Under the pieces are notes generated by a model, which was not told the DNA's origin, made no database searches, and saw nothing but the letters and a program-made list of their open reading frames with translations. Of a stretch of DNA of 64,000 nucleotides, positions 36,735-52,316 are shown in pieces; positions within the stretch are counted from its first letter, which is position 1, and every line of letters starts with the position of its first letter. The stretch is from sequence record OZ413487.1; one strand, 5' to 3'. Source of the DNA: a phage. A program made the position numbers and the translations under genes.

Positions 36735-37006
36735 AATCTAGGCTCCTTAAATGAATCTATGTAATCAATTAAATCCCAAGCATCGCGATGGGCTGTCAGA
36801 GGGTATACTTCTCCGAGAGGGATCATAGCAATAAGTCTATCAAAAACCCAGTCTGGACGCAACATTTTATGGTGATATTCCCACTCACCTTCCACAGATT
36901 TTTTCTGAGTTATCAGGATCTCTGTGTAGTGTTTCTCCTGTCTTGAGTAGATTGAAAATGACTTGTACATAAATGACCCCCTCTTGTTGAAAACAACAAT
37001 ACACAA
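36731..37006 (-). CDS. hypothetical protein
   Basis: ORF track. Confidence 0.4.
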   Translation of the reverse strand: MCIVVFNKRGSFMYKSFSIYSRQEKHYTEILITQKKSVEGEWEYHHKMLRPDWVFDRLIAMIPLGEVYPLTAHRDAWDLIDYIDSFKEPRL

Positions 37007-37321
37007 CTACCAGGTTACTGTCAAGTAGGCAACCGTATTATTTTTCTCTGGGGAGATGCCAACAACATCTACCTGCAGACCTCCTGCCCTTAAATCTCCA
37101 ACAATGTGAGGGAAGTAATCTGAGAGATGCGAGGGTAGATTTATCGAAAATCCGCACCCCAGAAAGCCTGCTAACGCTTTATTTTGTATCTCCCCCACAA
37201 TCGCATCATAAATGGAGTTAAGCTCGTCAGGGAGCGTTACAGGACGTTTTAGCGCTAACTGGTGTAATTTGTCCTTAGCACTCATTTTCATTTCAGGTCT
37301 ACCTCTGGAGGTGCCAACCAC
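37007..37321 (-). CDS. hypothetical protein
   Basis: ORF track. Confidence 0.4.
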   Translation of the reverse strand: MVGTSRGRPEMKMSAKDKLHQLALKRPVTLPDELNSIYDAIVGEIQNKALAGFLGCGFSINLPSHLSDYFPHIVGDLRAGGLQVDVVGISPEKNNTVAYLTVTW

Positions 37322-37821
37322 ATAAACGGCGGCAAGTCTAAACGGTTTTTCTTATCCCACACAAAATATGCATATGCTTGCCCGTCAGTTCTGCCGTTTG
37401 ATTGAAATGATGGACGCTTAGATATTGTGATCACAGTAGTAGGTGCATTATCAAGCCACCATTCAAATCTGGCTTTGCTTTCCAGAAAATTAAGACGCAA
37501 AAGCATAATAACTACGTCAGCATCTTTCAACGCCTTGTCTACAAACTCACGAGCCAGGCTGTATGGTGGGTTGGTGATAATACAGTCAACATGGTTGTAT
37601 TCTGTATTCAGATAGTCAACACCTTCTTGTATTTCTCCCCATGCAGATCCTAACGGCATACGGGAGTAGAACACACCTGAGGCACTATTCCTGCAAGGCT
37701 CTAAGTAGGTCCAGTCTTCTGGGAACGGAATAAGGTCATACAGCCCTTCTGCACACCACTCCGGTGTCACATACTCATCGTAGGCGTTACGTTGTTCATC
37801 AGGTTTTCGAGCACAAGTCAT
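37288..37821 (-). CDS. small phage-type N6-adenine DNA methyltransferase
   Basis: Catalytic motif IITNPPY preceded by motif-I-like LEPCRNSASGVF; ~177 aa. Confidence 0.65.
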   Translation of the reverse strand: MTCARKPDEQRNAYDEYVTPEWCAEGLYDLIPFPEDWTYLEPCRNSASGVFYSRMPLGSAWGEIQEGVDYLNTEYNHVDCIITNPPYSLAREFVDKALKDADVVIMLLRLNFLESKARFEWWLDNAPTTVITISKRPSFQSNGRTDGQAYAYFVWDKKNRLDLPPFMWLAPPEVDLK

Positions 37822-37872
37822 GCAAATCTCCAGATCATAAAAGCCCTCCGAAGAGGGCTTTAGAATTAATGT

Positions 37873-38922
37873 TTAAGCTTCTTCGACAATTCCTGCACCC
37901 AGGATTTTTTCATTGAGCTCTTTTGCTGTTTTAATAATATTGTCCACCAGACGCTTGCGAGTCTTATCTTTTACCTTAACCTCTTCACCGCCGTTTAGGG
38001 TTGTCTTCAATTGGGACAAAATGTCTTGAAGTTCAACGACAGAGAATCGCTGCAGATCTTCTGAGGTAATCTCACCTAAGGCAATCTTAACGGTCTCACC
38101 ACTTTCCATCTGCAGGTTCAGGAACACAGTGTGAACATCCCCTTTCGAACCACCCGCTTTTGCAGATTCAACAGCATGAACTAACTCATCTAAAGATGTG
38201 CACTGGTGAATCTCCGGAAGACCTGCTTCACCTAACACGCCTTCTTCATCACCTTTTGCCAGAAGCTTTTTCGGTTTTTGTCCGTTCTGGATGCGTTGTA
38301 TGTTGCCTTCATCCAGAATAATAGCTCCAGTGCGTGCTGCCAGCTCTTCTCCGTCCAACCACACTTCGCCACCAGCTGTGATGGATGCGATCTCATCTTC
38401 TGTCAGCACCCCACCGTAGTATTTTTCGATCAGGCGTTCAAAACGTTTTTTCCAGTAGCTGACCTGAGTATTCATGTTCACACCGTTACCATAAGTGCCA
38501 CCTTGATAGTAGTGGAACATAAACTCTGTGTCCGGAGCCACAGTACGTTCTTTGCAACCCAGCCATAAGATTGTTCCCGCAGAGCAGCACATCCCTTCCG
38601 CATGTGCAACAACGCTTGCCTGAGACTCGCGGAATGCCTGCAGATAAGCCATCGCAATGTGCACGCAACCACCAGGGCTGTTAATGATCACTCGAATGCT
38701 TTCTTCAGGCTGAGCCATACGGATCGTCTGCAGGCGAGACATATGATCCTGCAGGTCTTCCAAATCGTCGATATAAAGAACGTGGTCAACAACAGGTGTT
38801 GGGTAGCTGTATGTTTCCATGATACCGCCCGGCATACCAAACATTTTATTACTCATAGGTTCGAAACCGTTCTGTTTCTCTTTCATGCCGTGTACCATGG
38901 TGCTGCGAGGTGTTAAATTCAT
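37873..38922 (-). CDS. ClpP-family (S14) serine peptidase-like protein
   Basis: INSPGG...EGMCCSAGT...FMFH matches ClpP INSPGG / AASMGA / MIHQP pattern; C-terminal coiled-coil extension. Confidence 0.6.
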   Translation of the reverse strand: MNLTPRSTMVHGMKEKQNGFEPMSNKMFGMPGGIMETYSYPTPVVDHVLYIDDLEDLQDHMSRLQTIRMAQPEESIRVIINSPGGCVHIAMAYLQAFRESQASVVAHAEGMCCSAGTILWLGCKERTVAPDTEFMFHYYQGGTYGNGVNMNTQVSYWKKRFERLIEKYYGGVLTEDEIASITAGGEVWLDGEELAARTGAIILDEGNIQRIQNGQKPKKLLAKGDEEGVLGEAGLPEIHQCTSLDELVHAVESAKAGGSKGDVHTVFLNLQMESGETVKIALGEITSEDLQRFSVVELQDILSQLKTTLNGGEEVKVKDKTRKRLVDNIIKTAKELNEKILGAGIVEEA

Positions 38923-38982
38923 GAGAAATCCTTAATATTGGAAGTTGAAAGCTATTTATTTAAACCTGATTCACATTTACCT

Positions 38983-39294
38983 TTATTTAGCAATCACTAT
39001 GGAATACTTACGATTGTCAGAAGCATCACAGCTCAATGATTGCCAGTCTACCACATACCACGTATCATTGTCAACAATTACTTTATCGCCTGTTCTGTAG
39101 CAAGTGCTGCTTTCAATAATTCGAGACTCGATAAAGAATCTGTGTCGGCGCTCACGTAGCAACGCTAAGTTAATTATATTACCACCGCTGTCCTTGGTCC
39201 ACACATTCTTGGATCCCTTATTTGCCAAAATTGTCTCGCCGTTATAGACAAACAGGCAGTATATTTTATTCAGTTTCTCTTGTATTGTAGCCAT
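38983..39294 (-). CDS. hypothetical protein
   Basis: ORF track. Confidence 0.4.
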   Translation of the reverse strand: MATIQEKLNKIYCLFVYNGETILANKGSKNVWTKDSGGNIINLALLRERRHRFFIESRIIESSTCYRTGDKVIVDNDTWYVVDWQSLSCDASDNRKYSIVIAK

Positions 39295-39395
39295 ACTGTC
39301 CTTCTCTCTGTTTTGTCCGATAATAATATCTAAAGCTTACCTATTTGTCAACAACTGTTTTAGATATTTAAGGGTGGAATAACCACCCTTCTGTA

Positions 39396-40184
39396 TTACT
39401 CGGAAACAGGGGTCCAAATATGATTTGCACGATCCTCAATAAGATTGAGTGCGATCTGACGACCCAACCCAGAACGAACGACATCGTCTGGACTATCAAA
39501 GCTGATCATTCCAACCTCAGGATCTGGATGACGAGTAAAGAAATCCGTCACCCATGCAAGGCCAGATTTACCAGGGATGTCACGTTGGCTATTATCACCC
39601 ATAATTACAAGGGTGGCTTGATCAGAGATCCTTGTGATAATTGACAACATTTCTTCAGGGTTAGTTTGCTGTGCCTCGTCAATCAGGACAAAGCATCGCT
39701 CATCGAAACTACGACCACGAATGCTTTCAACTTCACAAATCTCGATACGACTGTTCTGACCGTCTCCCAGCATTGCGGCAAAAGCACCTTTGCCAACACG
39801 ACGACAAATCGTGTCCATCATGCTTCGAAGATAGGGCCACAGTTTCTGCATTGCATTTCCGGGTTTAAATCCTGAAGTCTTTCCTGTCTGGACGTAAGGA
39901 CGTGCAACAATGATCTTATCAATCTCATTCTTACGCAGAAGATCACCTGCATATGCAGATGCCATGAATGTCTTACCGGATCCAAACACACCGTTTACAA
40001 TAATAATCTTACGTGACCCTAGATAATCAAGATACTTTTGCTGCTTTTTATTCATTGGTCGGAGAGCTGGAGCGGTGTGCTCTCGTTCGTCAGCAAATTT
40101 CTCAGCAGCCTTACGCAGGCGATCAGATTTGCGAGCCTCTCTAGCTTCATCACGCATGCGTTTTGTTTCTTTAGCTCGACCCAT
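39396..40184 (-). CDS. phoH: PhoH-like ATPase
   Basis: Walker A GVFGSGKTF; Walker B VLIDEAQQ; PhoH-type length. Confidence 0.85.
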   Translation of the reverse strand: MGRAKETKRMRDEAREARKSDRLRKAAEKFADEREHTAPALRPMNKKQQKYLDYLGSRKIIIVNGVFGSGKTFMASAYAGDLLRKNEIDKIIVARPYVQTGKTSGFKPGNAMQKLWPYLRSMMDTICRRVGKGAFAAMLGDGQNSRIEICEVESIRGRSFDERCFVLIDEAQQTNPEEMLSIITRISDQATLVIMGDNSQRDIPGKSGLAWVTDFFTRHPDPEVGMISFDSPDDVVRSGLGRQIALNLIEDRANHIWTPVSE

Positions 40185-40222
40185 GTTGGGACTCCTTTCA
40201 GATTGAGATGTGCCAAGTACTT

Positions 40223-40573
40223 TTACTGCAACAGTTTTTCAATAGCCGCTTCCATGCTGCTTGCAACAGCCTGAACTCGGATATTCATCTCTTCTTGGTG
40301 GATCAGCTCCTTAAGCTCTTTAATGGTAAATTCTTTAGAGAAACCTTCCACCATAATCTTGTGCAAGGCTTCTTGCGTGTCTACTTGCAAGAACTTTTCC
40401 AGTTTGTTGGCAGAGGCTTCTAAATCAGCCCGAATACGAGGGTCATCTGTGCGATTCAGCATTAGGCGTAAGCCATCAAGATTAGTAGAAATAGCGTCTG
40501 CATGTTGAGTAACTAACCGTGGCAAAATGAGATCTACAAACTTATTAGCCAAATCGATACGTTCTTGTGTCAC
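40223..40573 (-). CDS. hypothetical protein
   Basis: ORF track. Confidence 0.4.
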   Translation of the reverse strand: MTQERIDLANKFVDLILPRLVTQHADAISTNLDGLRLMLNRTDDPRIRADLEASANKLEKFLQVDTQEALHKIMVEGFSKEFTIKELKELIHQEEMNIRVQAVASSMEAAIEKLLQ

Positions 40574-40745
40574 TGTTGCACCCCCTCTTCATCCTCATGA
40601 TATTTCTTTTCACGCTTGTGTTTTTTCTTAAGCTCAAGCGCAATCTCTTTTTTGTACGCCTTCTTCAAGGCTTTTTTAGCCATTTGGCACCTCCTCTGCT
40701 CTCATTACGCTAATTATAACCAACTTAACAAAGCTTTGTCAACGA

Positions 40746-41219
40746 TTAGTCAACCTGAACCCAACCATCTGCTACCTTTTTAAACATTCTTTGGTTATCA
40801 CTACCTCTGAATGGTTTTTTGGTGGGGTTATCTTTTTCGTACTTACCATCCATAATGTAATCGACACTATCTTTAATATAATCTGGGACTTCTTCAAACA
40901 AATACCCTGTGTACACCCAGATAGTTTTTGTGTTGCCGAAGCGTTCACGGATAGCGAGAATGATCGAGTACATACCATCGATATTGTAAGGCGCTAAAGG
41001 TTCGCCACCACACAATGTAACTCCGGTAATATGTTTCGGCTCTATAGAGTGAAGTATACTCTCAATTGTGTCATTTGTTAACGGTTCCCCTTTAGCGGGT
41101 GACCAAACACTTTTGTTTTGGCAACCAACACAGTGATGTGGACAACCAGAACAGAACACCGTTGTCCTAATGCCTGGGCCGTCAACCATGCTACACTCTA
41201 TAATATTAACAACATTCAT
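40746..41219 (-). CDS. nrdG: anaerobic ribonucleotide reductase activating protein (radical SAM)
   Basis: Cys cluster CSGCPHHCVGC; size and position next to nrdD. Confidence 0.8.
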   Translation of the reverse strand: MNVVNIIECSMVDGPGIRTTVFCSGCPHHCVGCQNKSVWSPAKGEPLTNDTIESILHSIEPKHITGVTLCGGEPLAPYNIDGMYSIILAIRERFGNTKTIWVYTGYLFEEVPDYIKDSVDYIMDGKYEKDNPTKKPFRGSDNQRMFKKVADGWVQVD

Positions 41220-41452
41220 TCCTTACCCTCTTTGAGGTAGGGATATTCAGGCCCACAATAAGCTCTATCTAAGAAAACAGCTTCTTCCCCTCTGGAATCA
41301 GTAGATCTATAATACCCATCACCCTGGTAACTAACGAACCAGTAGCACCCATCATCGCTTTCTACTGTTGTGGCTCTGTCCGAATGAAAGATAATTTCGT
41401 AATCCTTGCCGAATGTAAACCATCTGTTAGCTTTTACACAGACACCTACCAT
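41216..41452 (-). CDS. hypothetical protein
   Basis: ORF track; 4-nt overlap with nrdG. Confidence 0.4.
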   Translation of the reverse strand: MVGVCVKANRWFTFGKDYEIIFHSDRATTVESDDGCYWFVSYQGDGYYRSTDSRGEEAVFLDRAYCGPEYPYLKEGKE

Positions 41453-41783
41453 AAGGAACCTCTCTTCTGTGGTGTGCTTCTATTCAAGATAAACTTATAA
41501 AAGTCCATTTGATGAAGCCGTATAACTTTTTATACTTACGCTTCAGTGCTAACAATTTTATCTTGAGTTTCTTGATAGATTTCCGCATTTCGACCCCTTA
41601 TGCTTATAAGTACTCTGCATCGCATTCAGGACAATGCCAAATAAAATCGTCCAGTGCCTTGCACCAACGAAGATTGCAACGACAACCACACTTGCAAATT
41701 TTATAAATACCTTTAGACATACTGTACCTCCTAGCTCACTGTGTGTCAATAATATGCCACATCCTTGTGGCTTTTGTCAAGTA

Positions 41784-43907
41784 TCAGCAAATACAACTTC
41801 CATAGTGCTTAACTCGCTCGATAACTTCCGCTTGCTTACCTTTATTGTAAGGACGGGAGTTAGGACTGGAAAGGTATCCAGACACACGTCGAATTACACT
41901 GATCGTTCCCTCTTCATGGTTTCCACACTCTGGGCATACAAAGCCTTTAGCTGTTGCACTGAACTCACCAGAGAAACCACACTTGAGACATTTATCCACA
42001 GGTTGGTTAATACCAAAATACATAATATGTTTATATCCGAAATCAACAAGAGTTTCCAAAGCATCTAAGTTGTTTTTCAGATTTGGTGTCTCTACGTATC
42101 CGATGTTGCCACCAGAGGAGATCATAGCAAAACCTTCCTCATACTCCCACTTATCAAAAGGAGAGCTACTGATCCATACTGGCTGATGGAAACTGTTGGT
42201 GAGATATTCATGCTCGTGCTTCAACACTTCCGGATATTCACGATCCAGACAGGTTGCAGCTTTATAGCATAGACTTTCAGAAGGGGTGCCGTACAAGCTA
42301 AATGCTAGTCTACTTTCCTTCTTGTATCTCTCACAAGCATCTCTCATGTGCTGAAGGATTCCAAGAGCTAAAGCCTTGTCACCCTCTCTGCCCAAAATCT
42401 TACAGGTTTCATACACACCAATATACCCAATACTGATGGAAGCGTACCCGTCATAGAAGAGTTTATCAATACTCTCTTCAGGATCCAGGCGAGCAAGAGC
42501 GCCTTCACACCACATGATAGGGTTCTGCCCTGCCTTGGTGCCTTTCAGACGGTTAACCCTTACAAGGTGAGCTTCATATGCCAAATCCAGATACTCGTCA
42601 AGAACGGCAAAGAAATCAACACCTTCCGTCTTAGCTTTTGCCGCAATCATTGGTAGGTTAAGGCTAACAACACCCAAGTTGAATCTGCCGAGGTATTTCT
42701 CCTCACCTGTTTCCAAGTCATTGTATTTGCTAAGAAAACTCCGGCAACCCATACTCGTTACTTTGCCATCTGTCGAGCCTGTCACTTTACGATTTAGTGG
42801 AACAGAAACAAAGTCAGGATAAATCCGCTCTGCAGAGCATTCCAGAGCTAATCGTTTCAAATCATAGTTGGGATCTCCAGGGTTCATGTTGACACCCTCT
42901 TCTAGGAAGAACAGCACTTTAGGGAACACAGGTGTGATACGTTCTTCACCAAGACCCATTTTGTGGACTTTCAAGTAGTTTTTGGTAATCATTCTACCAA
43001 AGACTGAGGTGTCCAAACCTAAACTCAATGTGATGAATGGAGTTTGCCCGTTGACAGAAGTTAACGTATTGATTTGATAGAGCAAAGTCTGCATGCTGTC
43101 AAATACGTCTTTATCTGTCATTTGCATTGCAACAGTCTCAGCATCTGGCAACCAATGTTCCTGGCAAAATTTAAGGTTCTTCTCATAAGTCGCCTCAACA
43201 TACTGTGCCAAATAATGGTCAATATGGCTCATAGTCTGACCCCCATATTGAGCACTAGCTACTGCACTAGAGATTTGGCTAAGGATTGTTGTTGCAACCC
43301 CTATTGACTTCGGCTTACTGACATGGGCGTTACCAATGTTGAATCCGTTTTCCAACATATCTGGATAATTTACCAAACAACAGTTTGTTAACGGACTGAT
43401 CAAGTAGTCAAGATCATGCACATGGATGAAGCCTTTATTGTGCTCTTCTGAGACACGGTCTGGCAGGATCTGTGTTGATGCAAGGTGTTTGCTAAGGATG
43501 CCTGCAAGCAGGTCACGATGAGTGTGTACATGATTGGTAGGCTTATTTGCGTTTTCTTTTGTAAATTCATCACAAGTTCGATCCAAGAAGCCACTAATAT
43601 CTGCAAGCAGTTTTCCACCTGCCTCTCTGTTATTATCTCTTGTCTGTCTATACTGGATGTATTCTCTGGCTGCACATTTTAAACCCATATCCATAAGAGC
43701 ATCTTCAACAAGGATATGGATATTTTTTACAGAGATCGTGCACTGGTCGGTTGGTAGATTGTTAGCAACAACTTCATTAACCGCACAAGCGATCCGGTAA
43801 GCTTCTTCTTCAGTATGTCCAGACTCAAGTAAGGCGGACTCTGCCGCCTTGATCACCTTAATTCCGTTATAGACCTCTTCTCTACCGTCCCGTTTTACAA
43901 CTTTCAC
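41784..43907 (-). CDS. nrdD: anaerobic ribonucleoside-triphosphate reductase
   Basis: N-terminal ATP-cone; C-terminal glycyl-radical motif RVSGYL; zinc ribbon CLKC...CPEC. Confidence 0.9.
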   Translation of the reverse strand: MKVVKRDGREEVYNGIKVIKAAESALLESGHTEEEAYRIACAVNEVVANNLPTDQCTISVKNIHILVEDALMDMGLKCAAREYIQYRQTRDNNREAGGKLLADISGFLDRTCDEFTKENANKPTNHVHTHRDLLAGILSKHLASTQILPDRVSEEHNKGFIHVHDLDYLISPLTNCCLVNYPDMLENGFNIGNAHVSKPKSIGVATTILSQISSAVASAQYGGQTMSHIDHYLAQYVEATYEKNLKFCQEHWLPDAETVAMQMTDKDVFDSMQTLLYQINTLTSVNGQTPFITLSLGLDTSVFGRMITKNYLKVHKMGLGEERITPVFPKVLFFLEEGVNMNPGDPNYDLKRLALECSAERIYPDFVSVPLNRKVTGSTDGKVTSMGCRSFLSKYNDLETGEEKYLGRFNLGVVSLNLPMIAAKAKTEGVDFFAVLDEYLDLAYEAHLVRVNRLKGTKAGQNPIMWCEGALARLDPEESIDKLFYDGYASISIGYIGVYETCKILGREGDKALALGILQHMRDACERYKKESRLAFSLYGTPSESLCYKAATCLDREYPEVLKHEHEYLTNSFHQPVWISSSPFDKWEYEEGFAMISSGGNIGYVETPNLKNNLDALETLVDFGYKHIMYFGINQPVDKCLKCGFSGEFSATAKGFVCPECGNHEEGTISVIRRVSGYLSSPNSRPYNKGKQAEVIERVKHYGSCIC

Positions 43908-44182
43908 TTTTTCTCTCCAAAACCATTCTTAACAAAAGAGATGAAATCGTCGGCACCGCCTATATGGACACTTTCAAGATTGCTTTCTAAGAAGATCTGC
44001 GGCAACGTTCTGGGTACGATTGGACTGCACTTCTCAATAAGCTCTTCTTTTGTGTAACCCTCGCCAAGTGTCTTATATACAAAAGGCAGACCTTTACTGA
44101 CTGCAAATTCTTTTGCTCTTACACAATGTGGGCAGTTATCTTTACCGTAAATAATAAAGAAAAAAGATTTTTCACAGCTCAT
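43904..44182 (-). CDS. glutaredoxin-like protein
   Basis: Active-site CPHC; ~92 aa; between nrdB and nrdD. Confidence 0.7.
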   Translation of the reverse strand: MSCEKSFFFIIYGKDNCPHCVRAKEFAVSKGLPFVYKTLGEGYTKEELIEKCSPIVPRTLPQIFLESNLESVHIGGADDFISFVKNGFGEKK

Positions 44183-44185
44183 GTA

Positions 44186-45274
44186 TTAAAACTCCCAAAT
44201 TTCTTCTTCAGCGTCATTAACAGTTGTGTTGACGCGGTAGTCAGTGTTCGACATTTCTTGGTTCGCCGTCTGTTGCAATGAAGGTTTCATCCACACCTGC
44301 ATAAACGGTAGAGGGTCCTTTGTTGGCGGCACAAAGTCTTTGTCGATGCCGTAGTAATCATAAATCGGTGAGCAGTTATAGTCAACCCATTCTTTAAGCA
44401 ACGGTGAGTTAAGACCTATAATCGCTCTTCCTTCGCTGAAAATATAGTCACTCCAACCGTACTCTTTGGTTCGTACTTCATCAAGAATCTCTTTTAACTC
44501 CCCTTTTATCTCAAGGAAGCTTTTCTCCCATGCCGGATCATTAAGCAGGATATCAATGATGGCAAAATCACCTTTCGAGTGTAGCATTTCGTCAAGCATG
44601 ATTTTTTGAACAAGCTGCGCCACCTGAACAAAAATACCCTGTTCAGCTACTGCGAAAGTGCATGCAAAACTTGCAATAAACTCAATACTTTCCAGGGCTA
44701 AAAGTGCAAAAAGCGCTCTAAGAATGCATTTCCGCACAATATCTTCTTCAACACTAGAAGGATCCAGTCGGTATTTTGCACCAATAACCTCAAGCTCTTG
44801 CATGTATTTGACAATAACGCCAGATCTGCTCAGAACGTTTTGGTTTTCCTGAATCTCTTCTATAATCTCACGGGCATTGGGGAGGCATTGTCTAACAATC
44901 TCTGAGTAAGTTAGTGCGTGAAGAACTTCAATCTCTGACTGTTTCATCAATAGAGTGAAAAGCTCACTATTAGTGATGAATGGTGAAAAGAGGCAGATGA
45001 TCGATCTTGCCGCAACGCTATCAGCCTCCCATTGCCACATCAAGGTCTGCACCATCACGTCATAAGTTGACTTGGAGCATGTTACAAAATCTGAAATAGA
45101 TTGCGACAAATCCACTTCATCCTCTGCCCAATCTTGCTCTTTTTGTTTTTTGTATAGTTCAAACAGTTGTGGATATTTTTTGTTGATAGAGTCATACATA
45201 CCCATTTGCTGTCCTAGAAACAGCGGATAGTCACCAGTTTTATGAGCGGTGTTCTCAGCATTAAATACAGCCAT
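44186..45274 (-). CDS. nrdB: ribonucleotide reductase class Ia beta subunit
   Basis: Ferritin-like helices; 362 aa; directly downstream of nrdA. Confidence 0.85.
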   Translation of the reverse strand: MAVFNAENTAHKTGDYPLFLGQQMGMYDSINKKYPQLFELYKKQKEQDWAEDEVDLSQSISDFVTCSKSTYDVMVQTLMWQWEADSVAARSIICLFSPFITNSELFTLLMKQSEIEVLHALTYSEIVRQCLPNAREIIEEIQENQNVLSRSGVIVKYMQELEVIGAKYRLDPSSVEEDIVRKCILRALFALLALESIEFIASFACTFAVAEQGIFVQVAQLVQKIMLDEMLHSKGDFAIIDILLNDPAWEKSFLEIKGELKEILDEVRTKEYGWSDYIFSEGRAIIGLNSPLLKEWVDYNCSPIYDYYGIDKDFVPPTKDPLPFMQVWMKPSLQQTANQEMSNTDYRVNTTVNDAEEEIWEF

Positions 45275-45313
45275 TATTCTAACCTCTAAAATGGGGCCGA
45301 AGCCCCTTTAAAA

Positions 45314-47629
45314 TTATAGTGCACAACTTTCGCAATACGGATCTTCAACCGAACTATCTGCAATCAAAGGGTAGTTCTTTCTGGTTTCATCTTCAGCCTG
45401 TTTCTTGGCATGAAGTTCCTCTGCCAATGAGTCACCAGCACCAACCCTGGAGTTTAAATAATACCATGTCTTCATCCCGAATTTAGTGGCACGGATAAGG
45501 TACCCTAGCTGCTCCTTCATTGAAATTTTACCATCTTTCAACTTGGTGTAGTCTATGTATAAATCCGCGCTGATTGCCTGACCTGTAAATTTTTGAATCA
45601 CAGCATACATATCGATCATGTCGTTAGTATCAACGTCCCAAGCCGAGGTGTAATACTCTTTCAACTCATCATAGTCAGGAACGATAAACAGCACCTGCCC
45701 TTGTGGCGACTTTTTAAAGATAATGTGCTCACGGACAGGATAAACCCCGTTAGTGGTGTTTGTTGCCAGCGAAGAGCTTTCATTAGGCATATATGCTTCA
45801 AGAACGCTATTACGTAGCCCACCATTTTCAATGATTTCTTTACGTAACCCTTCCCAATCCTGTTTAAGAGAAGGATCTTTCACCACGCTATCGACCTCTT
45901 TGTTATAGGTGTCGATTGGTAACCAACCTTCTGGATATTTTGTTTTATGCATCCACTCGCAGACACCACGCTCTTTTGCCAACCGTAAACTTGCCTTATG
46001 CAAGCTGTAGCTGTGAAGTTCTGCAAGATCGTGAACAAGCTGTTTACTTTCAGGAGATCCGTAAGTAACCTTGTGGCTGGCAATAAAATGTGCAACATTG
46101 GTAAGGCCAACCCCGATGGATCTGCGTTTTTTAACTGTGCTTTCCATATTTTCATACGGATATGTCATGATTTCCATAACATTGTCAATCATAAGCACCG
46201 TGTAGTATGCAACATCCTCATACTCCTCTGGAGTAACCCTTCCAGCTACAAGAGATGACAGGAAGCACAATGCAACCTCTCCATCATCAGCATCGTACTT
46301 GAAGATATTACGCATATCTGAATAGCCTTTTGTAGGGAGGGCTATTTCTGCACACAGGTTACTTGAATAGATCACATCTTTAAAAGGTGTATGTCTATTC
46401 ATCTCATCTGTCCAGTATACATACAGCCTTCCCACCTCAGTACGCTGCGTGATCAGTTCAACAGCAAGATCTCTGGCTCGGATCCATGTTTTAGGAATAC
46501 TGTCATCTTTAGCAATACGATCAACCTCTGCATCAAACTCCTCCATAGACATGGTGAAGATACCCTCATGCAGTTGAGGAGCGTGCTTATAAGAAACAAG
46601 CATCCAATCTAAATTCTTAGCCACACGGTTGATAAACGACCTATTAATACCGATGGAGTAGTCCATGGTGTTGATTCTTTTTGAAGCAACAGTCATAGGG
46701 TTTCTCAAGCGGATTAGCTCATCAATCTGCGGGTCTAGTGCAAGGAATGATACTGTTGCAGAACCGCCACGTGATTGTTGTCTGTTCTCCTTAACACCAG
46801 CATCAATACCTCGATAATATGGAATCTTACCCATGTGTTTAATAGTGTTACCGCGAACACCATCACCTGCAGATCTTGATGATAAATAGTAGCCGATACC
46901 TGCTTGGTTAACCGTCATTGTGTACGCAACTTCACGTGCCACACCAATAGATTTTGCTGTATCGTCAGCTTTTATTACACAACAAGATGCATACCCTGTC
47001 TTACCTGTGCGCAGCCCGTTTAAGTACGGTGTCGGGGCATTGATCTTTAAGTCGGACAGATAAGTGTATAATTTTACAACATCGTTGATACGACGTTCTT
47101 TTGGCATATTCTTCATGACAGCCATTGCTATCCCCATAAACATCATCTGGGGAGATTCAAACAAGGTGTCTTTAAGAGTATCCTTGATCCCGTATTTGTC
47201 GCGAAACTGTTTAAGGACTGCATAGCCATAACCGAGATCTTTACTGTGGTCAATAACAGCGTCTAAAGTGTTTAGCTCGGTAAAGCTATATCCCATATCC
47301 TCCCAATACCCTTTCTCAACCATGTCGTTGTAAAATGATGGTAAGGAAGGGATCTTTGTAAACCCTCCAAAAGCCTCTTTATAAATCTGACCAATAAGAA
47401 CACGACCAGCCATACGGGAATGTGCTTCGTCTTTACGGCTAACACAGGAGTCTATGATAGCTTGGTTAACTTCTTTGGTTGTACATCCATCATACAGTCG
47501 TTTGTATGCATCCAGTGCAATATGTGACCAATTGCCGTTACCGTCGTCACCGAAAATAGCTGCCTTATTTAAACGTTCTGGATCGAATGCCACTTCACAT
47601 CCGTTGCTTTTAATTACCTTGGTGATCAA
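45314..47629 (-). CDS. nrdA: ribonucleotide reductase class Ia alpha subunit
   Basis: ATP-cone N-terminus; active-site SNLCAEIALP; C-terminal redox Cys pair CESCAL. Confidence 0.9.
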   Translation of the reverse strand: MITKVIKSNGCEVAFDPERLNKAAIFGDDGNGNWSHIALDAYKRLYDGCTTKEVNQAIIDSCVSRKDEAHSRMAGRVLIGQIYKEAFGGFTKIPSLPSFYNDMVEKGYWEDMGYSFTELNTLDAVIDHSKDLGYGYAVLKQFRDKYGIKDTLKDTLFESPQMMFMGIAMAVMKNMPKERRINDVVKLYTYLSDLKINAPTPYLNGLRTGKTGYASCCVIKADDTAKSIGVAREVAYTMTVNQAGIGYYLSSRSAGDGVRGNTIKHMGKIPYYRGIDAGVKENRQQSRGGSATVSFLALDPQIDELIRLRNPMTVASKRINTMDYSIGINRSFINRVAKNLDWMLVSYKHAPQLHEGIFTMSMEEFDAEVDRIAKDDSIPKTWIRARDLAVELITQRTEVGRLYVYWTDEMNRHTPFKDVIYSSNLCAEIALPTKGYSDMRNIFKYDADDGEVALCFLSSLVAGRVTPEEYEDVAYYTVLMIDNVMEIMTYPYENMESTVKKRRSIGVGLTNVAHFIASHKVTYGSPESKQLVHDLAELHSYSLHKASLRLAKERGVCEWMHKTKYPEGWLPIDTYNKEVDSVVKDPSLKQDWEGLRKEIIENGGLRNSVLEAYMPNESSSLATNTTNGVYPVREHIIFKKSPQGQVLFIVPDYDELKEYYTSAWDVDTNDMIDMYAVIQKFTGQAISADLYIDYTKLKDGKISMKEQLGYLIRATKFGMKTWYYLNSRVGAGDSLAEELHAKKQAEDETRKNYPLIADSSVEDPYCESCAL

Positions 47630-47934
47630 TTTGCTTCCTCCACTTCATCAACGTATTTATCAAGGCAGGTATCAGTATCTTGCTGGATAAAGGTATCCTC
47701 TTCTACAGAGATATTTATAATTTTGCCTGTATACTCGTCATAATAAACATCATCATACATTTTAATATCGTTTGTCAGGCCGTTGAACCAAAGCCAACCA
47801 ACATACTCTGACCGACTTGCAAAACCAAGATCCTTCCACTTGGAGTTATGACTCATCTTCACCACCTTAGCTTTCAATACCGAATAATTTTTCCAGGCGA
47901 TGCAGATCTTCAAAATTGAAAGGTTCATCAACAA
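47626..47934 (-). CDS. hypothetical protein
   Basis: ORF track; start may be an internal Met. Confidence 0.35.
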   Translation of the reverse strand: MLMNLSILKICIAWKNYSVLKAKVVKMSHNSKWKDLGFASRSEYVGWLWFNGLTNDIKMYDDVYYDEYTGKIINISVEEDTFIQQDTDTCLDKYVDEVEEAN

Positions 47935-48367
47935 TATGAATATCTTCAGCCTTTTCAGATTGTTTTGTATACTTTCTTACATTAACACGATCCTCTACAG
48001 GAATATCATACGGAAGATCTTGAACAAGCATTGCCTCACCAGGTGCTTTATCCACATCTAAAATATCTACACCGTTATACATTTGCGGGTATCTAAAGTC
48101 TGCACGCATGACACCAGCAAATACATCTGCCTTTCGATAATGTGTTGGCTTATTTTTGCATCGAACGTTTTTTCCACGAAGAACATCAATACTTTTTAAA
48201 TCAAACCCTACGGCAAAGAGTGCAGCTCGGAGACCGTTTCGTGTGCGAACGTTAAACCCGGGAACGGTAGATAGGAAATCCAAAGTAACTGAAATAAATG
48301 TCTTTTTAGGAATCATAACATTACTCATATCTGTCTCCATTTCTGGCTCACCAACAAAGTGAGCCAT
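47867..48367 (-). CDS. hypothetical protein
   Basis: ORF track; no confident motif. Confidence 0.4.
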   Translation of the reverse strand: MAHFVGEPEMETDMSNVMIPKKTFISVTLDFLSTVPGFNVRTRNGLRAALFAVGFDLKSIDVLRGKNVRCKNKPTHYRKADVFAGVMRADFRYPQMYNGVDILDVDKAPGEAMLVQDLPYDIPVEDRVNVRKYTKQSEKAEDIHIVDEPFNFEDLHRLEKLFGIES

Positions 48368-48426
48368 TATTATAGATTATCTAATACTATTAGTCAACAC
48401 AAAAGTTACCTATCGCTGTGATAGGA

Positions 48427-49410
48427 TTAACCTTTCACGAAGTGGTTATTAAGCAGTTGTCTGTGCTGAACCCACCCACAAAAGTTGGCAGACCAGAATT
48501 TACCATCACGGTCTTGATGGGTTACACCTTCCTGCCAAGTACTGATGTCTTGTGTGATTTCACATGAAGACAGGTAGTAGTTTAAACGTTCCATTGCGTT
48601 ATCGTGATCCATAGGTGTTGCCTGGTGCTCGTAAGGGCTTGCATGAATACGATCCCCACCAATCAATTTTTTAGCAACACTATCTGCCTTTTCAAACGTG
48701 CTGTCAATATTTCGATAAGATACTTGTGCACAGCAACTAGCACTGATAGACAGAGCTTCTTTAGTATCGAGAATGCAAAGCTTTCCTTCTGTGTCACGTA
48801 CAGCGTAGTTAAACTCTCCGTCCAAATAAACGTGCTCTACATATGGGGTGTGCCATTGACCCGGTTTAAGGATTTCAGGAGTGCTATTCTCAAGAGCCTC
48901 CCACATACAATTAGCTAACATCTGAATCGTAGGATCCGCATCGTGCCAGCAACGGAGGTGGAAAAAATTATTCCACTCGGTGCTTGTTACAACTGTTTTC
49001 ATGCGCTGGAACGGCTCCACTAAGCGGTTACATACTTGCTTATGGTAACCAGCAAGGGCGAACTTCTCTGCATGCCAAGCGGCGTTTTTTGCAGCTTCTT
49101 TCCAAAACTCTTCAGGAGTTAGCTCCATGTCAGTGTACTCTACACGGATCTTTTGATCGTGTTCCCCACCATCTTCCATTCCTCGCTTATTTACACCGAA
49201 GCGAACTGGCATTGCCGGATTCTCCACAATCTGTTGCAGCATCTTTCCGACAGGCACTGCACGGGAAGACATGGCGTTTCGGCTGAACACTCGGTGCGTC
49301 ATAAGCTCTGAGTGAATAATTCGAGGATACTCTAGCTCAAAAGTGGTGATGCGCTTACCTTTCTCGGAAATGCTGTCAGCAATGATCTTTGCAGTGCACA
49401 GTTTTAGCAT
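48427..49410 (-). CDS. thyX: putative flavin-dependent thymidylate synthase (ThyX-like)
   Basis: ELMTHRVFSRNAMSSRAV fits ThyX signature RHR-x7-S with first Arg replaced; within dNTP-synthesis cluster. Confidence 0.5.
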   Translation of the reverse strand: MLKLCTAKIIADSISEKGKRITTFELEYPRIIHSELMTHRVFSRNAMSSRAVPVGKMLQQIVENPAMPVRFGVNKRGMEDGGEHDQKIRVEYTDMELTPEEFWKEAAKNAAWHAEKFALAGYHKQVCNRLVEPFQRMKTVVTSTEWNNFFHLRCWHDADPTIQMLANCMWEALENSTPEILKPGQWHTPYVEHVYLDGEFNYAVRDTEGKLCILDTKEALSISASCCAQVSYRNIDSTFEKADSVAKKLIGGDRIHASPYEHQATPMDHDNAMERLNYYLSSCEITQDISTWQEGVTHQDRDGKFWSANFCGWVQHRQLLNNHFVKG

Positions 49411-49610
49411 TATTTAGCTCTCCTTGTTTTAATTTTGGAAATTTCGTCTGGGTTTATGTTGGCCTTAAATGCAAGGTATCTGTTGAACATATCGGAGCAC
49501 ATGTCTTGGGTGATCCTAGAGGCATACACTAGCTTACCTCCTAGATCATACACCTCTAGCCAGTCACCGTATCTGACTACAGGATCGCCACCTTTAGAAC
49601 ATCTGCCCAT
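49410..49610 (-). CDS. hypothetical protein
   Basis: ORF track. Confidence 0.35.
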   Translation of the reverse strand: MGRCSKGGDPVVRYGDWLEVYDLGGKLVYASRITQDMCSDMFNRYLAFKANINPDEISKIKTRRAK

Positions 49611-49611
49611 T

Positions 49612-50205
49612 TCAAATACCTTCTAAAAATTTTCCTATTTTATACCAGCTATTAGCGGTATAGTCAACACTGACCTTTAACTCCTCGAATTGCTCATAAG
49701 GCGTATCTTTTAGGATTTTAATAACTTCAGGTCGTGAAGCGAATTGGTTCAGGTATTCATGCCTGTCATCAATTATAACATCTACAGCCACATTTCCTTT
49801 GAAATGTGTGGCGTAGAATCCGTGGCCCTGGGTGTGATCGTCCAGATCCATAAAATCACTGGTCCAACGCTTTAAGAACCTTGATTTAGATGCAAGGTGA
49901 CCTTTCTTGCATACCGAGATAAATGCAAGCTTGTGACCACGAGCCACCAAATCTTTCATAACCTCAATAGCCCCCTCTTCAGGCTTAAGGAAGTCGTAGA
50001 GGGACGGATCACTCCAGAAATCAAAAGGTCCTATGATGTTTTCTTTGGGACGATCAGGCCAATACTTTGACAGATCGTAATACATTAGCCCATTAGAAGG
50101 TTTAGCTACTGTCTTACTGGCTGGACCATACAAACGCTCCAACCACTCCCACCATGCTGTTCCTGAATCTACCAGTGTCAGATCTACATCAATTCCGATT
50201 AACAT
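49612..50205 (-). CDS. HAD-superfamily phosphatase, putative 5'(3')-deoxyribonucleotidase
   Basis: N-terminal GIDVDLTLVDS (DxDxT/V) and later VDVIIDD. Confidence 0.5.
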   Translation of the reverse strand: MLIGIDVDLTLVDSGTAWWEWLERLYGPASKTVAKPSNGLMYYDLSKYWPDRPKENIIGPFDFWSDPSLYDFLKPEEGAIEVMKDLVARGHKLAFISVCKKGHLASKSRFLKRWTSDFMDLDDHTQGHGFYATHFKGNVAVDVIIDDRHEYLNQFASRPEVIKILKDTPYEQFEELKVSVDYTANSWYKIGKFLEGI

Positions 50206-50813
50206 TCTTCTTGGGCCTCTTTAGCATCAATATACTTGCACACAATCTCCGATGCACACTCCCAAGGTGCACCTTCAGGGTTTACAACATCAAACTCAAC
50301 CCCTTTTATTCCGTTCTTTTCCAGACTTAGATAGGTTCTGGAATCATTTCCCCAGTCATATCCTACACGGTGAATACGGAACAACAACAGATCTCCACCT
50401 GTGCTGTATGCGTACTCGCTAAGGCATGCCAGCTCCTCTTTGAATCCCCCATCGGAGTAAACAATAACCCCTTTACCTTCAGGGAAATCTTTCTTCAAAG
50501 ATGCGACTGCGGCTTTACCGAAAGCATCTTCACCAAAGATAGGTTTAATCAGATTTTCACTACAATGGATCATCCATTCTCGCGGAGAAACATGCTTGCC
50601 GTCTATCATTAAGAAAGGGCAAGGCTCTTCTTTGTAGTGACGGTCATAAAGTGCATTCCAGAGTTGAGGAGTTACACCAGCTGCCTTAATTGCCACACTG
50701 AAGAGCATTTCCTTAACCTCGCGGTGGTGTGAGTTAGGAATAGCTTCCAACAAGAGATCTGCAATGTGATCCTTACCACTGCTGGGTGGGGCGTTAAGAA
50801 CAATAATATCCAT
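50199..50813 (-). CDS. P-loop nucleotide kinase, putative dNMP kinase
   Basis: N-terminal LNAPPSSGKDHIADLL resembles T4 dNMP kinase P-loop. Confidence 0.5.
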   Translation of the reverse strand: MDIIVLNAPPSSGKDHIADLLLEAIPNSHHREVKEMLFSVAIKAAGVTPQLWNALYDRHYKEEPCPFLMIDGKHVSPREWMIHCSENLIKPIFGEDAFGKAAVASLKKDFPEGKGVIVYSDGGFKEELACLSEYAYSTGGDLLLFRIHRVGYDWGNDSRTYLSLEKNGIKGVEFDVVNPEGAPWECASEIVCKYIDAKEAQEEC

Positions 50814-51016
50814 TAAAAACCTCCGTGGTATTCTTCAACTGCATCAATAATACTTTTACACTTATCTACCAGCTCGTTAGCCACTACAGAATCGTCTTCC
50901 CAAACAGCCTCCTCAATCTGATCAAGCAATGATCGCATCTTACTCATCATTTCTGGGATAAAGTTTTCTGAAAAGTTGTCTGGAATTGTTAACTCTAGTG
51001 TCATTTCGGTCTCCAA
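50813..51016 (-). CDS. hypothetical acidic protein
   Basis: ORF track. Confidence 0.35.
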   Translation of the reverse strand: METEMTLELTIPDNFSENFIPEMMSKMRSLLDQIEEAVWEDDSVVANELVDKCKSIIDAVEEYHGGF

Positions 51017-51031
51017 TCATACTATGCGTTA

Positions 51032-51490
51032 TTAGAAGTTTGTTTTTACACGTCCCTTCTCATCAACCTCGTTGTTAGCTAAAAGCGTTACAAAGTCTGT
51101 GAAACGAACATGAAGAACCCTTTTCTTATCAAGGTATCCTAAAGCCACCCCTGAGAAATTTAGCATCAAAGGGGCTAAAGAAGCTCTGGCACTGAAATGC
51201 TGTTGTTCTACCCTTCCAACACCCTTAGTGTAGGATGGGTTAAGATTGTAAGTTCTGAATCCCAGTTTTGTTGGAGCTTTAGAATTAAAAACGACTTTAT
51301 AGCGTTTCTTACTCAACTTATGCTCCAGGATAAGCATTCCCTTATCACCTTTGATAAGTTGAAAATCTGTAAAGTGCTCTTTTAAGACGAAAGGTAGTGC
51401 CAGTCCCATCGCCTGTCCTCTTTGTACCGCTGTCTCACCAAAAGCTTTTGCATCAGTAAGTTCTTTGGTCAAGTCTATGCTTTTGATCAT
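51032..51490 (-). CDS. hypothetical protein
   Basis: ORF track. Confidence 0.4.
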   Translation of the reverse strand: MIKSIDLTKELTDAKAFGETAVQRGQAMGLALPFVLKEHFTDFQLIKGDKGMLILEHKLSKKRYKVVFNSKAPTKLGFRTYNLNPSYTKGVGRVEQQHFSARASLAPLMLNFSGVALGYLDKKRVLHVRFTDFVTLLANNEVDEKGRVKTNF

Positions 51491-52301
51491 ACCTGGTCTC
51501 CAAAATGTATTGTAGTTCTTTCTTACCTATACTCTTCATTCCAGCAGTCTTACCTGCTTCTTCTTGAAAAGAAGAATAGCATTCAGCAAACACTCTGTCA
51601 ACACCGTTAACTAAAGATTTTATGAAATATGTTGATTCTTCAGATTTTGGGTCATCATCCCCCAATACTTTTCCAGCATTATACCCAACACGTCTTACAC
51701 AGAAGTCGTAGTCATCTGGTGTGCTAAAAGAAAATAACTTATTCTCTCCAATCTCTACAGGATCCCTATTGCACGCCTTTTTCTCCCAAATTTGGAAAAC
51801 ACATGGCACGTCATAAGGTTTGCCATTAAGTAAAAACGAATTCTTAGGGCACCTTTCGCTGTAGACAAGGTGCATCGACATGTCCAGTTTGTTTGCAAAA
51901 AATATTTTTTCAAATGTCCGTGGCAAGATGAAGGCTATAGCCCCTCCAAGCTCTAGCAATGATGCACAATGGTTAAAGAATTTGCAAGCTAAGGATGAAT
52001 TCTTGCCAAATGGTGGGTTACCTATGAAGACATCTGCCTTGGGATGCACCTCCAAGAAGTTTGCCTGAATGCACGGTGTTGGTCCTTCAAATTCAGGATC
52101 TGGTACTAAATCGTACGACAGTATCTCTGAAAATAGTTTTGAAAAAGAACCCCTTCCAGCAGAAGGCTCAACGTATGCACAATTCCCATACTTATCTTTT
52201 ACTTTACCAACAAGATATTCTGCATACTCAGGGTTTGTGTAGTATTTGTCGTTGGACTCTTTCTTGCTCAAAGTGCCTCCAAAAGGAAAAGGGAGGCGCA
52301 A
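51453..52301 (-). CDS. N6-adenine DNA methyltransferase (motif I before motif IV)
   Basis: YYTNPEYAEYL, motif I VEPSAGRGSF, motif IV IGNPPFG. Confidence 0.75.
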   Translation of the reverse strand: MRLPFPFGGTLSKKESNDKYYTNPEYAEYLVGKVKDKYGNCAYVEPSAGRGSFSKLFSEILSYDLVPDPEFEGPTPCIQANFLEVHPKADVFIGNPPFGKNSSLACKFFNHCASLLELGGAIAFILPRTFEKIFFANKLDMSMHLVYSERCPKNSFLLNGKPYDVPCVFQIWEKKACNRDPVEIGENKLFSFSTPDDYDFCVRRVGYNAGKVLGDDDPKSEESTYFIKSLVNGVDRVFAECYSSFQEEAGKTAGMKSIGKKELQYILETRYDQKHRLDQRTY

Positions 52302-52316
52302 GCCTCCCTATAATTG

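Follow-up and report, generated by a model that had tools for sequence, protein, structure and literature searches.

Two putative stand-alone amino-methyltransferases with a probable narrow anti-restriction role in a Vequintavirus

Two genes in the DNA analyzed here (sequence record OZ413487.1; the whole stretch of 64,000 nucleotides is referred to as the window) probably encode stand-alone, functional amino-methyltransferases of the gamma class, most likely directed at the N6 of adenine in DNA and with a narrow role in anti-restriction. We refer to the proteins as ORF1 and ORF2. Both genes are already known: they have been annotated since the deposition of the rV5 genome and are nearly identical in more than 100 sequenced phages.

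Results

The window is part of the genome of a Vequintavirus (an rV5-like E. coli myovirus). DNA comparison gave 97-98% identity to rV5, APECc02 and the BASEL phage Bas48, and 97.8% to the BASEL phage CarlMeissner. ORF1 corresponds to rV5 gp118 (YP_002003620) and bas48_0176, and ORF2 to rV5 gp096 (YP_002003598) and bas48_0198. The window does not differ in substance from rV5 and Bas48, which have the same genes in the same order with the same neighbours; in their records the two genes are called "DNA methyltransferase" or "putative N6 adenine methyltransferase", a function assigned from sequence only. The annotation as putative N6-adenine methyltransferase was found for both genes in more than 100 records, and both are conserved and syntenic across the Vequintavirinae and relatives. 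Our literature search found no methylome data for any Vequintavirus, and all published statements were at the level of annotation. The features used below are as follows:

37288..37821, minus strand: ORF1, 177 aa, a predicted minimal gamma-class amino-methyltransferase consisting of the catalytic core only
37675..37701, minus strand: ORF1 motif I (SAM binding), EPCRNSASG
37561..37572, minus strand: ORF1 motif IV (catalytic), NPPY, residues 84-87
37841..37860, minus strand: hairpin AAGCCCTC-TTCG-GAGGGCTT, between the stop of the ClpP-like gene (37873) and the ORF1 ribosome-binding site
51453..52271, minus strand: ORF2 from its corrected start (272 aa), predicted to be a compact, complete, monomeric gamma-class (M.TaqI-like) methyltransferase
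52143..52169, minus strand: ORF2 motif I, EPSAGRGSF
52008..52019, minus strand: ORF2 motif IV, NPPF, residues 85-88
51456..51779, minus strand: ORF2 C-terminal domain (approximately residues 165-272), putative target-recognition domain
52290..52309, minus strand: intrinsic terminator that follows the DnaQ-like exonuclease gene and directly precedes the true ORF2 start

A preliminary description of this DNA had proposed two reading frames with a catalytic (N/D)PP(Y/F) motif and motif I upstream. Both were confirmed on the minus strand, the first over 37288..37821 with 177 aa. The second had been started at 52301, and this did not hold: the TTG at that position sits in the stem of the terminator (52309..52290, minus strand; stem of 8 bp, 6 of the 8 pairs GC, T-rich tail). 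The true start codon is a TTG at 52271 that GGAGG precedes by 4 nt; from there the product has the 272 aa annotated in rV5 and Bas48, and homologs of ORF2 also begin at the equivalent position. The hairpin upstream of ORF1, read directly from the sequence, is terminator-like with a weak T tail, and it is absent from the terminator scan list because its T-run is too short.

Only two occurrences of [ND]PP[YFW] were present in the window (six frames, segments of 100 aa or more without a stop, 21,448 residues). In both proteins the SAM-binding motifs X and I lie upstream of the catalytic motif IV, in the series YVTPEW, EPCRNSASG, NPPY for ORF1 and YYTNPEY, EPSAGRGSF, NPPF for ORF2, and both follow the order YxTP, EPxxGxG, acidic residue, D/N-F/Y-L, NPP(Y/F), xSF. 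N84, P85 and P86 of ORF1 are invariant among 64 family members. In the ORF2 family, E35, P36, G39, G41 and F43 (73 sequences) as well as the GNPPFG stretch are invariant. Motif I of ORF1 deviates from its family consensus EPCxGxG by an insertion of two residues and an exchange of the first Gly for Ala, which is TaqI-like (motif I of M.TaqI in the alignment is EPACAHGPF). Profile and fold evidence shows that the (N/D)PP(Y/F) motifs of ORF1 and ORF2 are no chance tetrapeptides.

ORF1 and ORF2 match two PHROG families over their full length (PHROG 799 at 8.1e-67 and PHROG 5172 at 4.4e-129, respectively). The preliminary description regarded the two methyltransferases as unrelated. This has to be revised, since profile-profile comparison of the two families aligned 142 columns across the whole catalytic core (probability 97.7%, E 2e-12), and the order of motifs is identical. 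ORF2 also matches the PHROG family of ORF1 at 2.6e-13, and ORF1 likewise matches that of ORF2. Judged from these profiles, the two proteins are distantly homologous, both with the gamma-class motif order.

AlphaFold models (pLDDT 90 for ORF1 and 93.3 for ORF2) have the class I Rossmann methyltransferase fold in both proteins. The best fold matches were M.TaqI, M.BseCI, CamA, MmeI and HsdM, together with rRNA m6A enzymes. The assignment of both proteins as SAM-dependent amino-methyltransferases of the adenine-N6 type is supported as a prediction, with rRNA enzymes among the matches. Near the full length of ORF2 (225-253 residues) aligns with TaqI, BseCI, CamA and MmeI, and the PADLOC model MTase_II PDLC03255 covers residues 8-253 end to end (3.3e-34). 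ORF1 aligns with TaqI over 144 residues; the core takes up all 177 aa, leaving no target-recognition domain, and matches of ORF1 to methyltransferase models derived from restriction-modification (RM) systems were marginal (E ~1e-3). According to the models, ORF2 would be a complete, compact enzyme like M.TaqI, BseCI and CamA, and ORF1 a bare catalytic core. When PDB was searched with profiles, ORF1 retrieved M.TaqI and type I M subunits, and the best match of ORF2 was of the METTL5/PH1948/Ta1320 type; direct sequence searches of PDB with the single proteins gave no matches. All Pfam and NCBIfam matches of both proteins were under the curated cut-offs, with nothing significant in NCBIfam. For Pfam N6_Mtase, Eco57I and EcoRI_methylase, the best scores were 20.1 bits for ORF1 (cut-off 26.4) and 15.5 bits for ORF2 (cut-off 25.3). 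Many ORF2 homologs have a precomputed match, marked weak, to Pfam PF26055 (Mtase_EDM2), a methyltransferase-like domain named after plant EDM2; a literature search for "PF26055" found no paper.

The proposed orphan status of both genes was borne out, as no restriction endonuclease or conserved partner adjoins ORF1, ORF2 or their homologs elsewhere. Their neighbours are a ClpP-like protease, a DnaQ-like exonuclease and small conserved hypotheticals, with no Pfam or PADLOC match; no specificity subunit is encoded nearby. Both genes lie within a replication and nucleotide-metabolism block, with the DnaQ-like exonuclease as direct neighbour and an EndoVII-type nuclease close by. In distant phages we found the contexts primase/helicase-methyltransferase-DNA polymerase, RNR-methyltransferase, HNH-methyltransferase by DNA polymerase, and a position beside a C5 DNA methyltransferase and gpA. 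In Phapecoctavirus, the gene downstream of the ORF2 homolog encodes DNA polymerase. A bacterial ORF2 homolog is located in an RM island, adjoining a type IIG enzyme and a specificity subunit.

The stop codon of ORF1 and the start codon of a 94-aa gene overlap in the sequence ATGA, and small ORFs directly adjoin the homologs as well. A conserved partner for ORF1, which lacks a recognition domain, was nevertheless rejected because the small proteins beside ORF1 homologs are mutually unrelated. A 152-aa ORF (51032..51490) without family matches overlaps ORF2 by 38 nt; the idea that a conserved partner or a concealed endonuclease follows ORF2 was also rejected, as this ORF has no or marginal similarity to the genes that follow bacterial homologs of ORF2. 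Domain fusions in the ORF1 family offered no informative clue to the substrate. The ratios of synonymous to non-synonymous changes against relatives (13:0 and 9:1 for ORF1, 14:2 and 13:3 for ORF2) show that both genes are under purifying selection.

The preliminary description took the two genes to suggest self-protection from restriction at two different target sites. On our analysis, this reading is weakened by the plating of near-identical phages in the BASEL work. There, CarlMeissner plates at 4e-4 to 1e-3 on EcoRI and at 0.02-0.09 on EcoCFT_II and forms no plaques on EcoRV; Bas48, near-identical to the window, and Bas49 show an EOP of ~1e-3 on EcoRI and no plaques on EcoRV. Near-identical phages were moderately restricted by type III systems. 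The BASEL authors describe phages of this group as "exceptionally susceptible" to RM systems and without effective protection. Compared with the window, the CarlMeissner copies carry no non-synonymous codon changes in ORF1 and two in ORF2.

With Bas48 plating at ~1e-3 on EcoRI and failing to plate on EcoRV, any protection by ORF1 and ORF2 would be narrow. Blanket adenine methylation of the Hia5/M.EcoGII type is ruled out by this published sensitivity. Since the BASEL panel comprised six RM systems only, a narrow protective role, against specificities outside that panel, is possible. Palindrome avoidance was considered as a guide to the target sites and rejected: GTAC and CTAG are depleted, but nothing links them to either enzyme, and GATC, with 345 sites and an O/E of 1.06, shows no avoidance.

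Discussion

In the explanation that we consider probable, ORF2 combines a Rossmann catalytic domain with a C-terminal target-recognition domain of ~100 aa, and would most likely flip the adenine of a short, specific DNA site and convert it to N6-methyladenine on replicating phage DNA. ORF1 most likely methylates DNA adenine too, at a short or relaxed site that would be read by loops of the catalytic domain, with the conserved residues R109, R118, R136-P-S-F139, D146 and Y150. Progeny DNA would thereby be shielded from those particular host restriction systems whose sites are covered; general anti-restriction is not the role proposed. The case for DNA as the substrate is strong for ORF2, the one protein for which it is well supported, and moderate for ORF1. 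The adenine-N6 product, the site specificity and the protective role we infer for both. Against this explanation stand the strong restriction of near-identical phages by EcoRI and EcoRV, the annotation-level nature of all published statements, the sub-threshold Pfam and NCBIfam scores of both proteins, the RNA-methylase labels of some ORF2 homologs, the marginal matches of ORF1 to RM-derived models and its lack of a recognizable DNA-recognition domain, and catalytic cores that are as close to rRNA m6A enzymes (METTL5, PH1948, Ta1320, ErmC', KsgA) as to DNA enzymes.

It is somewhat unlikely that phage or host DNA is methylated for a purpose other than evading restriction. In that case the methylation could time replication, packaging or transcription, keep host mismatch repair away, or identify phage DNA as self to a phage-encoded nuclease. 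Such a role would suit genes that are conserved, syntenic and under purifying selection in phages that are nonetheless so susceptible to RM, and that lie in replication and nucleotide-metabolism modules by the DnaQ-like exonuclease and near the EndoVII-type nuclease. Regulatory roles are known for orphan methyltransferases, among them CamA, Dam and CcrM, and the structural matches of ORF2 include CamA. However, neither a nuclease partner nor a regulatory site or enriched motif was identified, GATC and the other palindromes show no telling pattern, and the six RM systems of BASEL leave room for narrow protection. We also judge it unlikely that one or both proteins, ORF1 especially, methylate adenine (or another amino group) in host or phage rRNA or tRNA, or act on a protein, and do not act on DNA. 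METTL5, PH1948 and Ta1320 share the bare Rossmann architecture of ORF1 and are among the top fold matches of both proteins, rRNA adenine methyltransferases of the ErmC' and KsgA type follow close behind, and the phage encodes tRNAs. Some homologs are labelled "predicted RNA methylase" (those of ORF2), "dimethyladenosine transferase" or rRNA methyltransferase, but these are automatic annotations. The C-terminal domain of ORF2 aligns with recognition domains of DNA enzymes and a type II methyltransferase model covers the protein end to end, and genes of the ORF1 type are found beside DNA polymerase, HNH and C5-DNA-methyltransferase genes and also in a 19-kb podovirus, all of which counts against an RNA or protein substrate.

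A catalytically dead or vestigial ORF1 is very unlikely. Its motif I, EPCRNSASG in this lineage, is atypical for a family with the consensus EPCxGxG, and model confidence dips in block 41-50, the motif I region (mean pLDDT 84). M.TaqI itself, however, has Ala at the same position (EPACAHG), the other motif residues are all invariant, the substitution ratios given above point to constraint, and 109 phage records share the protein at 99% identity or more.

We keep to DNA adenine methylation with a narrow protective role as the preferred explanation. The equation of an orphan methyltransferase with anti-restriction is unproven for these phages, because they rank with the most sensitive to restriction of all E. 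coli phages tested. This pair of methyltransferase genes is an ordinary and known feature that matters little as it stands; the modest point of interest is what the enzymes target in phages of such sensitivity. The ORF1 family is very large and not curated in Pfam (1,713 cluster representatives at E<=1e-30) and consists of phage mini-methyltransferases without a recognition domain, almost all of 160-220 aa and stand-alone. It is doubtful, though conceivable, that its members choose their sites entirely by catalytic-domain loops or by self-association, a mode not yet described for DNA methyltransferases, or else leave DNA alone and act on host or phage RNA during takeover. Either would explain why a phage with two "DNA methyltransferases" is still fully restriction-sensitive. 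Once defined, the substrate and specificity of this family would annotate thousands of genes, because it is abundant in phages.

Among known systems, monomeric gamma-class DNA enzymes (M.TaqI, M.BseCI, CamA and the methyltransferase-TRD part of MmeI) share the Rossmann core and motif order of ORF1 and ORF2, with EPxx(G/A)xG as motif I. Their recognition domains align with the C-terminal domain of ORF2, whereas ORF1 has no such domain. They are much larger (421-585 aa, compared with 272 aa for ORF2 and 177 aa for ORF1), identity is 15-21%, and ORF1 and ORF2 have no cognate endonuclease. METTL5, PH1948 and Ta1320 (COG2263) have a similar core fold and act on rRNA. METTL5 needs TRMT112; by comparison with this group, ORF2 has the extra domain resembling that of DNA methyltransferases, and no conserved partner gene lies beside either phage gene. 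T1-type Dam (PF05869, TIGR01712) likewise comprises small orphan adenine methyltransferases of phages, in which a helix like that of ORF1 comes after NPPY. Membership of ORF1 in this family was rejected on its sub-threshold scores (19.2 bits against PF05869, cut-off 28.1; 16.1 bits against TIGR01712, cut-off 97; T1 Dam itself scores 236 bits) and on a profile alignment with T1 Dam of 31 columns only (probability 70.8%). Hia5, Hin1523 and M.EcoGII are non-specific adenine methyltransferases of prophages and, like the genes studied here, phage-borne orphans (PMC3299994). These are Dam-like proteins of ~280 aa with DPPY followed by FxGxG, unlike ORF1 and ORF2, and DNA modified by Hia5-type enzymes resists many adenine-sensitive restriction enzymes, whereas EcoRI and EcoRV act strongly against Vequintavirus phages. 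The Hia5 type is proposed as a model for the possible behaviour of enzymes whose recognition domain is poor.

Gene boundaries and motifs

Both ORFs carry an NPP(Y/F) tetrapeptide with a motif I upstream, as had been reported in the preliminary description. A six-frame scan of all stop-free segments (minimum length 100 aa; 21,448 residues in total) gave no other [ND]PP[YFW] tetrapeptide, so the motif observation is real and specific. The features are as follows:

37007..37291, minus strand: 94-aa gene, equivalent of phage rV5 gp119, starting in an ATGA overlap with the ORF1 stop codon
37288..37821, minus strand: ORF1, 177 aa
37561..37572, minus strand: NPPY of ORF1 (residues 84-87)
Residues 41-49 of ORF1, minus strand: EPCRNSASG
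37860..37841, minus strand: UUCG-loop hairpin upstream of ORF1, similar to the terminator upstream of ORF2
51032..51490, minus strand: 152-aa ORF, equivalent of rV5 gp097, sharing 38 nt with the 3' end of ORF2
51453..52301, minus strand: second ORF as mechanically listed, 282 aa
52008..52019, minus strand: NPPF of ORF2
52143..52169, minus strand: EPSAGRGSF of ORF2
52309..52290, minus strand: intrinsic terminator, AGGGAGGC-TTGC-GCCTCCCT then TTTCCTTTT

The 5' end of ORF2 had been placed at 52301 and has to be moved, since that TTG lies within the terminator stem. The start is the next in-frame TTG, 52271, with GGAGG 4 nt upstream. It yields a 272-aa product, as annotated in rV5 and Bas48 (BASEL phage CarlMeissner), and ORF2 homologs share this N-terminus (MSK...). 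The ATG of ORF1 at 37821 is preceded by GGAG. The terminator is strong (8-bp stem, 6 GC pairs, T-rich tail) and sits 3' of a DnaQ-like exonuclease gene, between that gene and ORF2; expression of ORF2 would therefore rely on read-through or an unrecognised promoter.

The ATGA overlap of the 94-aa gene with ORF1 suggests translational coupling. Other phages also have small ORFs directly next to their ORF1 homologs, but these bear no relation to this gene. The 152-aa ORF gave zero matches in Pfam and PADLOC and is not kept beside ORF2 homologs of other lineages.

Occurrence in related phages

The 16 kb spanning both genes are 97-98% identical to Escherichia phages APECc02, pangalan, rV5 and CarlMeissner and to ~110 others, all of the genus Vequintavirus. 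In the rV5 record, gp118 (ORF1) is a 'DNA methyltransferase' and gp096 (ORF2) a 'putative DNA N6-adenine methyltransferase'; both genes are labelled 'putative N6 adenine methyltransferase' in the Bas48 record. The gene pair is therefore an already-annotated, ordinary feature of a well-studied phage group.

About 20-30 GenBank records titled 'Campylobacter phage' (host Campylobacter jejuni; MG065684, MG065677, MG065647, MG065662 and others) encode both proteins with 98-100% identity to E. coli Vequintavirus and are probably mislabelled or contaminant assemblies. In isim, Phage 203/206, inoa, nomine, phita32, WalterGehring and Mangalyan, 37000..53000 of the window was matched in 2-3 pieces whose span exceeds the query by 0.8-1.8 kb; duplicated nrdD pieces or a 'putative homing endonuclease' are annotated in these relatives. 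The extra DNA represents insertions absent from the window, which are likely homing endonucleases or introns in nrd genes.

Using tblastn, ORF1-type genes were found in 544 phage records (Vequintavirinae, Phapecoctavirus, and phages of Vibrio, Aeromonas, Staphylococcus and Listeria) and ORF2-type genes in 224. An exhaustive profile search for the ORF1 family returned 1,713 cluster representatives at E<=1e-30 and 10,695 at E<=1e-10. Nearly all of the best 150 are stand-alone proteins of 160-220 aa; the few longer ones have no extra domain that is informative. In one 560-aa representative (P0326) the profile matches two stretches, perhaps because two mini-methyltransferases are fused in tandem.

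In Vequintavirinae-like genomes, ORF1-type genes lie 3' of a ClpP-like gene. A P2-like Aeromonas phage has its copy next to gpA and a C5 DNA methylase gene, and in a 19-kb Enterococcus podovirus the gene is flanked by an HNH gene and a large uncharacterised gene, with a DNA polymerase close by. In Phapecoctavirus, the ORF2-type gene separates primase/helicase from DNA polymerase; such genes are also located 3' of ribonucleotide reductase in Pseudomonas phage KIL1 and 3' of the DnaQ-like exonuclease gene in the window. No endonuclease or conserved partner was found beside ORF1 or ORF2, either among their neighbours in the window or among those of homologs, so the description of both genes as 'orphan' is justified.

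In Poseidonibacter ostreae (WFKJ01000010.1, L004 2701..7404), an ORF2 homolog directly follows the genes for a type IIG restriction-methylase (PADLOC 1e-163) and the associated specificity subunit; the protein encoded 3' of it has 199 aa and matches REase_II marginally (6e-4). The locus may represent a defence island with a small type II system.

The two proteins are related

The two enzymes had been called unrelated, which does not stand. In a profile-profile comparison built on alignments of 64 (ORF1) and 73 (ORF2) homologs, the families align over 142 columns, the whole catalytic domain, with 97.7% probability (E 2e-12). ORF2 also matched the ORF1 family, PHROG 799, at 2.6e-13, and ORF1 the ORF2 family, PHROG 5172, at 1.6e-3. 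They share the gamma-class motif order: YxTP (X), EPxx(G/A)xG (I), an acidic residue after strand 2 (E63 in ORF1, D54 in ORF2), D/N-F/Y-L (III), NPP(Y/F) (IV) and (R/K)xSF (VIII-like).

The AlphaFold2 models of ORF1 (pLDDT 89.6, pTM 0.86) and ORF2 (pLDDT 93.3, pTM 0.88) are both confident predictions. As modelled, ORF1 is essentially hardly more than a catalytic core; below the top match, its fold matched METTL5, PH1948, ErmC', type I M subunits, MmeI, PacII, BseCI and CamA. The last ~100 residues of the ORF2 model resemble recognition domains of M.TaqI/BseCI/CamA/MmeI-type enzymes. In agreement with this, residues 8-253 of ORF2 align with profile positions 2-249 of the 269 in the PADLOC 'Type II methyltransferase' model (3.3e-34), an end-to-end match, whereas ORF1 barely registers (about 1e-3). 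No curated Pfam or NCBIfam model scored above threshold for either protein. Assignment of ORF1 as a T1-type Dam was ruled out, as only 31 columns align. ORF2-family proteins (homologs P0129-P0237; locus L016 5001..5804) have weak precomputed matches to PF26055 'Mtase_EDM2', a Pfam family that takes its name from a methyltransferase-like domain in the plant protein EDM2. The matches hint that the phage and bacterial proteins are connected with a domain of a eukaryotic chromatin protein.

Restriction phenotype and function

m6A inside an EcoRI or EcoRV site blocks that enzyme. The one relevant experiment on protection is the BASEL phenotyping of Bas48; Bas49, another BASEL phage, plated similarly.

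EOP of Bas48 (BASEL) and site counts in its genome
EcoRI: 4e-4 to 1e-3; 34 sites
EcoRV: no plaques; 84 sites
EcoCFT_II: 0.02-0.09; 288 sites
EcoP1: 0.09-0.56; 191 sites
Type I systems EcoKI and EcoCFT_I: about 0.4-1

Bas48 is thus restricted by EcoRI and EcoRV despite its methyltransferase genes, so neither enzyme provides blanket m6A or covers GAATTC or GATATC. Palindrome statistics of the whole window gave no clue to either specificity: GATC is plentiful (345 sites, O/E 1.06) rather than avoided, GTAC (O/E 0.63) and CTAG (O/E 0.60) are under-represented, CGATCG occurs once against 10 expected, and there are 8 EcoRI and 22 EcoRV sites. No methylome or enzymatic test of either gene is reported in the literature: the rV5 paper is silent on them, and in later papers on Vequintavirinae methylation is deduced solely from annotation. 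We consider the ClaI digest of Certrevirus CB7 to be confounded by host Dam.

Taken together, the two genes probably encode active orphan gamma-class adenine-N6 DNA methyltransferases with narrow site specificities. ORF2 would be a compact, complete TaqI-like enzyme and ORF1 a minimal, core-only one; the self-protection proposed earlier would be confined to particular RM systems outside those assayed. The plating data are also compatible with a DNA mark that is made in a non-defensive role, which we regard as unlikely. Somewhat less likely still is RNA or another substrate, chiefly for ORF1, whose fold matches include METTL5 and ErmC' alongside MmeI and BseCI. Loss of activity in ORF1 is very improbable: its motif I looks degenerate against its family consensus EPCxGxG, but M.TaqI (EPACAHG) has the same Ala-x-Gly form. 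Both genes are under purifying selection, with synonymous:non-synonymous codon differences of 13:0 (against Bas48) and 9:1 (against rV5) in ORF1, and 14:2 and 13:3, respectively, in ORF2.

With two active, narrowly specific enzymes as the preferred reading, what interest remains lies in the abundant ORF1 family, which lacks a recognition domain, namely in its substrate and its way of recognising a target. Unlike Hia5 and M.EcoGII, which coat the genome with m6A, neither ORF1 nor ORF2 does so.
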